A program made the translations under genes and the position numbers. DNA of 64,000 nucleotides. Source: an uncultured Gammaproteobacteria bacterium (GTDB lineage: Bacteria > Patescibacteriota > Patescibacteriia > UBA11705 > JABHMO01). Positions 35,019-35,646 of this stretch are shown in pieces. Position 1 is the stretch's first letter, and the number at the start of each line of letters is the position of its first letter. The stretch spans positions 1,022-65,021 of the forward strand of contig CAZPYM010000001.1 in NCBI GenBank assembly GCA_964590105.1. Reading direction: 5' to 3'. A model generated the notes under the pieces. That model saw only the letters and a program-made list of their open reading frames with translations, made no database searches and was not told where the DNA came from.

Positions 35019-35108
35019 GGAGAGGTGGCTGAGCGGCTGAAAGTAGCACCCTGCTAAGGTGTTGAGCTCGCAAGGGCTCCGAGGGTTCGAATCCCTCCCT
35101 CTCCGCCA
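35019..35108 (+). tRNA. tRNA-Ser (anticodon GCT), class II with long variable arm
   Basis: GGAGAGG acceptor, anticodon loop CTGCTAA, long variable arm, T-arm GGTTCGAATCC. CCA is encoded. Confidence 0.85.
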
Positions 35109-35254
35109 CTCGACTCGCTACGCTCGCTCGTAGTCTTCGACCAGGCATTGAAAGACGAGTCGAGTGCCTCAAGCGAACGGAGTGAGTCGAGGGGCAAGTT
35201 ACTCGCTACGCTCGCTCGTGGTCTTCGACCAGGCATTGAAAGACGAGTCGAGTG
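35107..35254 (+). repeat. two direct copies of a ~55-bp self-complementary (hairpin) repeat
   Basis: Unit 1 lies at 35107-35166, bounded by cactcgactcg ... cgagtcgagtg (11-bp perfect stem ends). Unit 2 lies at 35201-35254 and differs by one substitution. The 5' arm of unit 1 overlaps the CCA end of tRNA-Ser(GCT). Confidence 0.85.
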
Positions 35255-35275
35255 GCCAGGCATAAAATTATTAGT

Positions 35276-35554
35276 ATGGGTTATTTTGTATATTTTGCGC
35301 GTTGTCAGGATAAGAGTTTGTATATCGGTTGTACTGATGATCCGAATCAACGATTAAAGCGTCATAATAGAGGTGAAGGAAGCGAATGGATTAAACAGCA
35401 TGGTCCGGCAGAAATAGTATATTTTGAAGAATAGGATACTCTTATTGAAGCGAGAAGAAGAGAGCGGCAAGTAAAAAAATGGAGTCGAGTCAAGAAAGAA
35501 AATTTGATTAAGTGGGGGCATCCAATTCCCGAAAAATTGAAGGAGAAAAAATAA
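35276..35554 (+). pseudogene. GIY-YIG (YhbQ-like) nuclease gene interrupted by in-frame TAG at 35435
   Basis: 'MGYFVYFARCQDKSLYIGCTDDPNQRLKRHNRG..GPAEIVYFEE' up to the TAG, then in the same frame 'DTLIEARRRERQVKKWSRVKKENLI...', which is the conserved C-terminal helix of the family. The TAA stop abuts tRNA-Ser(TGA). Confidence 0.6.
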
Positions 35555-35646
35555 GGAGAGATGGCTGAGCGGTTGAAGGCGACGGTCTTGAAAACCGTTG
35601 AACCTGTCAAAGGGTTCCGTGGGTTCGAATCCCACTCTCTCCGCCA
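35555..35646 (+). tRNA. tRNA-Ser (anticodon TGA), class II
   Basis: GGAGAGA acceptor, anticodon stem ACGGT/ACCGT with loop CTTGAAA, long variable arm, T-arm GGTTCGAATCC. CCA is encoded. Confidence 0.85.

Follow-up and report, generated by a model that had tools for sequence, protein, structure and literature searches.

A palindromic module and a disrupted GIY-YIG nuclease gene between two tRNA-Ser genes of a Patescibacteria contig

Introduction

Why should a GIY-YIG nuclease gene with an in-frame amber codon lie wedged between two serine transfer RNA (tRNA) genes, behind hairpin repeats that begin inside the CCA end of the first? This arrangement occurs in a 64,000-nucleotide (nt) stretch of DNA, hereafter the window, taken from contig CAZPYM010000001.1 (positions 1,022 to 65,021, forward strand) of assembly GCA_964590105.1, which is deposited as an uncultured Gammaproteobacteria bacterium and placed by GTDB in the Patescibacteriota. 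We found that the repeats belong to a palindromic module which, together with a small nuclease gene, recurs at the 3' ends of tRNA and transfer-messenger RNA (tmRNA) genes in many bacterial groups. We read the locus, with a probability of roughly 0.6, as one copy, now in decay, of a small selfish cassette that sits within a tRNA operon. Its features are as follows.

35019 to 35108, plus strand: intact tRNA-Ser(GCT), encoded CCA at 35106 to 35108 (ARAGORN; Rfam RF00005, 56.6 bits)
35106 to 35195, plus strand: complete palindromic module (sequence, box search, and parsing alongside 82 other units)
35106 to 35117, plus strand: module site1, CCACTCGACTCG, which takes in the tRNA CCA
35124 to 35133, plus strand: module boxB, TCGCTCGTAG
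35131 to 35143, plus strand: short hairpin region of the module
35157 to 35166, plus strand: module site2, GAGTCGAGTG
35167 to 35176, plus strand: module boxX5, CCTCAAGCGA
35184 to 35194, plus strand: module site3, GAGTCGAGGGG
35201 to 35255, plus strand: duplicated 5' part of the module (direct repeat, 98%)
35276 to 35554, plus strand: GIY-YIG (UPF0213/YhbQ, Slx1-like) gene of 92 codons, ATG at 35276, broken by a TAG
35432 to 35434, plus strand: nonsense TAG, codon 53, in place of a conserved Tyr (alignments; TAT in the orthologue)
35555 to 35646, plus strand: intact tRNA-Ser(TGA) (ARAGORN; Rfam, 59.4 bits)
34892 to 34920, plus strand: promoter-like site TTGACA-17-TAAAGT upstream of tRNA-Ser(GCT) (consensus scan, weak match)

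Module and nuclease gene at tRNA and tmRNA 3' ends

We carried out a one-genome-per-species scan for relatives of the nuclease and kept the best 80 of 274 confirmed loci. In 58 of these 80, ARAGORN placed the end of a co-oriented tRNA or tmRNA gene no more than 330 nt upstream of the nuclease start, compared with an expectation of 5%, which we call generous (binomial p = 3e-57). The upstream gene was a tmRNA in 19 loci and a tRNA-Ser in 13, followed by 12 other tRNA identities (Glu, Pro, Ala, Leu, Met, Val, Trp, Phe, Asn, Tyr, Ile, and Arg), and inspection of other loci revealed further tRNA or tmRNA 3' ends that ARAGORN had missed or that contig ends had cut. In nearly all tRNA-linked loci the spacer holds the same ordered boxes, starting directly at the CCA. 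Both the module and the 80 nuclease loci occur in Patescibacteria (many groups among the loci), Chloroflexota, Acidobacteriota, Planctomycetota, Verrucomicrobiota, Nitrospirota, Ignavibacteria, and others, and the hosts of the 80 loci also include Armatimonadota. The pairing of module and nuclease is near-obligate and widespread at tRNA and tmRNA CCA ends.

The nuclease open reading frame (ORF) often ends at the next tRNA gene or several codons inside it, as seen in L003/L004, L035, L056, and L046 and at 35552 to 35555 of the window; after RNase P cleavage of such a co-transcript, the mRNA would end in its stop codon or would lack one altogether. In another locus (L075, 2181 to 2400), the final ~18 nt of the tmRNA gene occur twice, and the second copy carries the module; between it and the true tmRNA end lie ~190 nt of unrelated AT-rich sequence, which looks like a further insertion at the same end.

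A conserved palindromic module

The module spans ~90 nt and comprises five sequence boxes and two covariation-supported helices. It runs from site1 (CCA-YTCGACTCG) through a variable hairpin, boxB (TCGCTCRTGG), and a short hairpin (GGYC...GRCC) to a variable linker, site2 (GAGTCGARTG), boxX5 (CCYYGAGCGA), a variable insert, and site3 (GAGTCGARRGG). In helix P1, tRNA C75 and A76 plus site1 pair with site2; in helix P4, CCYY of boxX5 pairs with RRGG of site3. We parsed 83 distinct complete units with fuzzy anchors and aligned 81 of them (alignment A4). P1 and P4 together showed 210 double-change cells, against 86 ± 7.6 in shuffled alignments, with none of 500 shuffles as high, and pairing dropped to 31 to 43% in slid controls. 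Moreover, RNAalifold recovered both helices from an unsupervised MAFFT alignment of 18 compact units. The site1-boxB and boxX5-site3 blocks are imperfect inverted copies of each other, and either type of 3' hairpin may accompany a T-type or a C-type 5' block without restriction.

Two further pairings were considered and dropped: a boxB:boxX5 pseudoknot, complementary in the consensus but almost invariant and so uninformative, and an alternative site1:site3 helix, likewise complementary in the consensus but no better than shuffles. The two strands fold with equal energy (Wilcoxon p = 0.51), and G-U pairs make up 6.5% on both; among the wobble pairs of P4, 33 are G-T and 5 are A-C. Site3 lies 2 to 22 nt from the ATG in about half of the parsed units. 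A known RNA family or ribozyme was rejected, as no Rfam model matched at gathering or permissive E values (up to 10); Rfam 15 returned only chance microRNA-type matches for window positions 35090 to 35300 (E of 0.59 or worse) and nothing over the spacer of 12 other loci at E values up to 1. A hammerhead or hepatitis delta virus (HDV) topology was also discarded, since manual threading of the module failed and the strand order differs. Between the variable module parts and their own upstream tRNAs, no guide-like complementarity exceeded that of control pairs.

The hairpin repeats of the window are one complete module plus a duplicated 5' part. The inverted arms CACTCGACTCG and CGAGTCGAGTG start at 35107, the second C of the CCA, and so inside the CCA, where the earlier note on this DNA had placed the start of the first repeat unit; what had appeared to be a local oddity is instead a copy of a cross-phylum module. 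A 54-nt direct repeat (35113 to 35166 and 35201 to 35254, 98% identity) has a 33-mer core that occurs twice in the window and nowhere else in it, with none expected from shuffles. The duplicate holds a partial site1, boxB (35212 to 35221), the hairpin TGGTCTTCGACCA (35219 to 35231), and site2 (35245 to 35254), lacks a second boxX5/site3 hairpin, and amounts to a 62-nt insertion relative to the orthologous loci L003 and L004 (alignment A3). Owing to this duplication, site3 lies 81 nt from the ATG in the window. Tandem or partial extra copies are present in six other loci (L018, L021, L023, L076, L082, and L160), and in L064, L051, L160, and L166 tandem boxX5/site3 hairpins or whole units, in at least three copies, follow a tRNA or tmRNA; the L051 array contains a masked gap.

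The boundaries reported earlier for the flanking genes were reproduced by ARAGORN and Rfam, which place the end of tRNA-Ser(GCT) at 35108 and the start of tRNA-Ser(TGA) at 35555 and score both genes as intact and normal (gathering score of the Rfam tRNA model, 29). The sequence likewise agrees that the ORF starts at 35276 and that its TAA (35552 to 35554) directly abuts base 35555, the first of tRNA-Ser(TGA). The weak match at 34892 to 34920 is the sole candidate promoter for the tRNA-module-ORF-tRNA stretch, and a consensus scan of the plus strand from 34921 to 36700 found no promoter-like or terminator-like site.

Empty sites and site switching

The suggestion that the gene is an inserted feature fits the comparison of orthologous tRNA clusters. 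Two genomes whose FtsX is 71 to 74% identical to that of the window carry the same tRNA-Ser pair with neither module nor gene, separated by a 49-nt AT-rich spacer in one (L212) and by 3 nt in the other (L210), while the site is occupied in the window and in L004/L208. In a neighbor-joining tree, close nucleases within one host clade lie behind different tRNAs; the switches include Trp versus Glu in Peribacteria, Glu versus Ala in Nitrospirota, tmRNA versus Ser, Phe versus tmRNA, and Met versus tmRNA. Moreover, L003 and L004 show 100% identity that runs from the T-arm across the module, the nuclease gene, tRNA-Ser(TGA), and the downstream sequence (A3), whereas the upstream tRNA body is Ser(GGA) in L003 and Ser(GCT) in L004, and the upstream genes differ too.

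Several observations on these clusters stand apart. The L004 contig ("Ca. Kuenenbacteria" JABMRF010000046) contains, at 1990 to 2346, a second and different GIY-YIG ORF of 92 amino acids (2068 to 2346), immediately upstream of tRNA-Ser(GCT). A duplicate of the tRNA 5' half, with a 25-nt hairpin inserted in the D-loop region, precedes this ORF, whose reading frame continues into the intact tRNA; the window has no such insertion. An ENA contig (L002) matches the window at 100% up to the last base of tRNA-Ser(TGA) and is then wholly different (L002, 810 to 868). In a strain with a 97% identical FtsX (L207, 1095 to 1245), a NUDIX gene comes straight after FtsX, with no tRNA-Ser. The tRNA cluster looks like a hotspot of strain-level rearrangement, or else the L002 and L207 contigs are chimeric.

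Modules without a gene or a tRNA

A DNA-only scan of metagenome contigs was made for the site2-boxX5 junction; many of its matches are chance hits in GC-rich coding sequence. Among the matches listed were 44 complete units, about 33 of which lie directly 3' of a tRNA-like or tmRNA-like end (19 ARAGORN calls, 10 automatic T-arm matches, and about 4 found by eye). No unit among the 44 has the opposite orientation. The other 11 listed units lie elsewhere, between ordinary genes or extending an ORF, and still start with CCAYTCGAC. At least 22 of the 44 have a GIY-YIG ORF downstream; 22 were scored as lacking one, of which at least one (L114) does have it and some are at contig ends. Five complete units (L108, L122, L136, L148, and L162) start with CCA and have neither a tRNA nor a GIY-YIG gene.

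The window itself holds a solitary boxX5/site3 hairpin on the minus strand (16279 to 16316), inside an ORF of 748 amino acids (15919 to 18165). It reads TCCCGAGCGA-17 nt-GAGTCGAGGGA and lies in frame in a low-complexity surface-type protein, its plus strand encoding ...SLDSPALGEVARD...; in this it resembles palindromic elements that insert into coding regions.

A tight clade of Bacteroidales nucleases (L030, L031, L033, and L034) is no longer tied to tRNAs: neither a tRNA nor a full module lies upstream, and in L030, L033, and L034 the nuclease follows an apparent coding region. Short hairpins of the CCTGAGCTTGTCGAAGG type are found close to the gene: all four loci have them downstream, and L031 has them upstream as well. 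On two unrelated contigs (L120 and L149), GGGTCTTTCCGGG(G)ACAAGGACGG stands just before CCATTCGAC and replaces the tRNA end, which suggests another recurrent insertion context. A phage origin was rejected, as the 3 viral-contig matches to a 19-nt pattern are chance-like and none is near a tRNA, a GIY-YIG ORF, or other boxes. So was a plasmid origin, with no module match on plasmids and 2 distant protein matches.

The nuclease is a minimal GIY-YIG domain

When the TAG is read through, residues 3 to 76 match positions 2 to 78 of the PF01541 GIY-YIG profile (E = 2.7e-16; 60 bits, cut-off 22.6). The match crosses the TAG, so that the frame beyond it is family-typical as had been proposed, while the encoded product of 52 amino acids covers just profile positions 2 to 54. 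A profile search of the PDB ranked two UPF0213 structures, 1zg2 (3.3e-18) and 1ywl (2.1e-16), with Slx1 as a weak match, and Foldseek returned the same two, followed by the Slx1 nuclease domain 6seh (root mean square deviation 1.6 Å over 72 columns). No NCBIfam model matches the protein, and there is no meaningful PADLOC match, which leaves membership in a defense system unsupported. The model shows a bare catalytic domain of ~85 amino acids with a short tail and no DNA-binding domain; the ORF has 92 codons, and its relatives encode 80 to 107 amino acids, the intact L004 orthologue 97. The protein is a minimal UPF0213/YhbQ, Slx1-like GIY-YIG domain from a family that comprises 22,210 clusters at 50% identity with E ≤ 1e-3. 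The earlier description of a homing-type element thus holds as far as presence and absence at a conserved site are concerned but not for the protein, which lacks a DNA-binding domain and belongs to the Slx1-like branch.

Gene callers extend many ORFs of this family 20 to 60 amino acids upstream into the module, for example with LSERRESKGRDKIIN in P0001, and family entries in databases often have spurious, repeat-derived N termini. A distant relative (37% identity) on Radiobacillus kanasensis plasmid NZ_CP088021 (11711 to 11944) lies beside, or overlaps, an annotated tRNA1(Val) (adenine(37)-N6)-methyltransferase gene, one more tRNA-related setting for this protein family.

The in-frame TAG

The TAG occupies 35432 to 35434, codon 53; 35435 to 35437 and codon 54, given for it earlier, are incorrect. 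Each of the 11 relatives aligned here has Tyr or Phe at this column, and TAT stands in the closest intact orthologue (79 to 80% identity), as expected of a single point event. Relative to this orthologue, the nonsynonymous-to-synonymous ratio (pN/pS) is 0.20 for codons 1 to 52 and 0.17 for codons 54 to 92. Since the two values are alike, the codons past the TAG were constrained until recently, which agrees with the proposal that inactivation was recent. In an AlphaFold model made from the intact orthologue rather than from the window protein (predicted local distance difference test score 87), residue 53 ends strand β3, and the truncated product would lack helix α3, with the conserved Glu63, and helix α4. 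Y6, Y16, R26, and H30 precede the stop; Glu63 follows it and is missing from the encoded 52-amino-acid product. Because the codons after the TAG still show purifying selection, the TAG is very probably a recent, ordinary nonsense mutation that inactivates the gene, and not a recoding signal.

Programmed amber suppression or reassignment, by which a full-length active nuclease would be made, had been raised as the alternative. The intact, conserved frame downstream and the presence of the same TAG in several assemblies speak for it, yet the former is explained equally well by a recent nonsense mutation. TAG is an ordinary stop here: among the 44 longest nonoverlapping ORFs of the window, TAA ends 33, TAG 10, and TGA 1, and the TAG-terminated ones include the ORF ending at 18165, whose stop the earlier note had cited. 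(TGA is thus almost unused as a terminator.) ARAGORN found no suppressor tRNA or tRNA(CUA) among the window's 4 tRNAs. Among ~125 related ORFs in the fetched loci, no other family member stops at this column, and 3 other lineages have nonsense codons, at differing and unrelated positions, that are TGA, TAG, or TAA. We therefore regard read-through as very unlikely. An even smaller chance attaches to an artifact of sequencing or assembly as the source of the stop codon or of the duplicated repeat. Assembly is difficult in repeats and tRNA clusters, and the joins around the cluster differ in L002 and L207; against this, 100% identity to the window extends over 2426 bp in a contig of JGI 3300028191 (L001) and over 809 bp in a contig of ENA ERZ27248895 (L002), with the TAG in both and both repeat copies in L002. 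Since the same sequence stands in independent JGI and ENA assemblies, the TAG is not the read error of one assembly. The exact 52-amino-acid product is also found in other assemblies.

Discussion

The decaying selfish cassette that we favor has two parts: the palindromic module of ~90 nt, with helix P1 starting in the CCA of the tRNA before it, and directly downstream, a stand-alone UPF0213/YhbQ, Slx1-like GIY-YIG gene encoding 85 to 95 amino acids. It would have no promoter of its own and would be co-transcribed with the tRNAs from their promoter; a place immediately 3' of the CCA would be tolerated because the tRNA stays intact. Slx1 prefers branched DNA. By analogy, the Slx1-like and probably structure-specific nuclease may act on hairpin or cruciform DNA of the module, or on unoccupied tRNA-gene ends. 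Such action would favor the copying of the cassette itself and, in trans, that of modules without a gene, in the manner of a homing endonuclease or of the pairing of repetitive extragenic palindromes (REP) with REP-associated tyrosine transposases (RAYT). In the window, a recent change of TAT or TAC to TAG has cut the nuclease short before the helix bearing the catalytic Glu, and the 5' half of the module has been duplicated.

A more far-reaching proposal, which we offer tentatively and would not bet on, is that the cassette represents a previously unrecognized class of bacterial mobile element, which targets virtually any tRNA or tmRNA gene at its CCA end through nucleic acid structure or a tRNA-module RNA rather than by reading sequence, with the gene-less modules as dependents resembling MITEs (miniature inverted-repeat transposable elements). 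The structure recognized would then be the palindromic module, or the cloverleaf of the tRNA gene together with its acceptor end.

Several points weigh against a mobile selfish cassette. Among the loci compared, no conserved right-end repeat, module, or box lies consistently 3' of the ORF, and no junction shows a target-site duplication, the sole shared junction sequence being CCA. The difference between L003 and L004 could be due to recombination between tRNA-Ser genes or to an assembly join instead of transposition, and the case for mobility rests on metagenome assemblies, mostly with one contig per genome. In addition, the prevalence of tmRNA and tRNA-Ser could in part reflect old vertical insertions, which would fit a host function as well.

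The module may act mainly as RNA, a possibility compatible with a selfish cassette to which we give clearly less than even odds. As a structured leader on the same transcript as the tRNA, it would release the tRNA from the nuclease mRNA, for example by an RNase III cut of P1 or by self-cleavage, and would gate translation, with site3 (GAAGGG, GAGGGG, or GAGAGG) sequestered in P4 before the start codon. Consistent with this, the module is always co-oriented with the tRNA and the ORF, no promoter or terminator lies between these two, compensatory changes maintain P1 and P4, and P1, which starts at the CCA and is long and all but perfect, could be an RNase III-type processing site. Site3 resembles a ribosome-binding site, and its spacing from the ATG in about half of the units would suit that role, but in the window the duplication has moved it 81 nt away. 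Theta (HDV-like) ribozymes directly 3' of phage tRNAs provide a precedent (PMC10879173), whereas none of the known self-cleaving ribozyme models in Rfam matched the module. The signals as to the acting molecule are mixed. Equal folding of the two strands, with rare G-U pairs on both, favors DNA, as do helix sequences that are almost invariant, which is unusual for RNA stems; the G-T excess in P4 favors sense-strand RNA or a single strand, counting here against our preferred reading, and the fixed orientation favors a sense-strand molecule. The tRNA-less, ORF-less units starting with CCA favor DNA too, and tRNA processing leaves them unexplained. A role for module and nuclease in the service of the host, as a tRNA- or tmRNA-linked maintenance or RNA-metabolism factor whose dispensable copy was lost here, seems improbable to us. 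The same positions (tmRNA and tRNA-Ser) do recur over wide phylogenetic distances, the ORF is under purifying selection, the Firmicute relative adjoins the tRNA1(Val) m6A37 methyltransferase gene, and an Slx1-like GIY-YIG domain is fused to a TrmH-type tRNA methyltransferase (PMC1564403), a single fusion that the same survey judged possibly irrelevant. Presence and absence among close relatives, sporadic pseudogenes, switching within clades between unrelated tRNA identities, and module copies that lack the gene or a tRNA, some of them inside coding regions, all argue against such a role.

For this genome little follows: it has one dead nuclease gene, and neither tRNA is damaged. The wider interest lies in UPF0213/YhbQ, a very large family with solved structures and no assigned function, for which the pairing provides a testable substrate hypothesis and a candidate explanation of how a bare GIY-YIG domain finds its target. 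If mobile, the cassette would add a new nuclease type and a new target, the CCA end, to bacterial mobile DNA, and would explain a common source of misannotated ORFs with N-terminal extensions and repeat-derived peptide segments in metagenomes. If the module acts as RNA, it would be a widespread, uncatalogued motif tied to tRNA 3' processing. A full-text literature search, with most subscription journals outside its scope, found no description of the module or of its association with the nuclease; provisionally, the cassette appears to be undescribed.

Comparison with known systems

UPF0213/YhbQ proteins (1ZG2, BH0048; 1YWL, EF2693) and the Slx1 domain share fold and sequence family with the window gene, in which the Tyr, Tyr, Arg, His, and Glu positions are conserved when the TAG is read through. 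Like the window gene, UPF0213 proteins are single domains of ~90 amino acids; Slx1 has a RING domain and needs Slx4, and the window copy is truncated. No function has been assigned to UPF0213 proteins, and we know of no report that ties them to tRNA 3' ends or to a palindromic module.

The free-standing GIY-YIG homing endonuclease gene segB of phage T4 lies in a tRNA cluster (PMC2330249). As with SegB, a GIY-YIG gene stands between tRNAs and is present or absent at its site, and spread by DNA breaks and repair is plausible. SegB-type enzymes, however, have 200 to 250 amino acids and DNA-binding domains and belong to phages, whereas the cassette nuclease is a bare catalytic domain, chromosomal and essentially absent from viral contigs and plasmids, and follows many tRNAs and tmRNA, always with a conserved module. 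REP/RAYT systems, REPINs, and MITEs (PMC3116915, PMC2817692) resemble the cassette in their dispersed, short, GC-rich palindromes, which may form arrays, and REP/RAYT systems and MITEs also in that some units lie beside a nuclease-type gene and many do not; short gene-less copies at unrelated sites are a MITE-like trait. RAYTs are, however, HUH Y1 transposases with REPs on both sides, while the cassette has a GIY-YIG nuclease and a one-sided module; unlike a REP, this module has five boxes in ~90 nt, and in most cases it is fused to the CCA end of a tRNA or tmRNA.

Theta ribozymes likewise begin as structured elements at the tRNA 3' end (PMC10879173), but the module has no covariance-model match, a topology other than that of HDV, an attached nuclease gene, and tRNA-less copies. 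With integrase islands (Islander; PMC4383910) and IS200/IS605 elements the cassette shares a preference for tRNA and tmRNA 3' ends, hairpin ends, and insertion directly 3' of a short fixed sequence, here CCA. Unlike them, it has no integrase or HUH transposase and measures ~0.4 to 0.5 kb, and unlike integrase islands it has no duplicated tRNA fragment at its far end. A 2006 survey of the GIY-YIG superfamily, which notes the fusion of an Slx1-like domain to a tRNA methyltransferase and reports no tRNA-adjacent location, asked whether more members of the superfamily are molecular parasites (PMC1564403).

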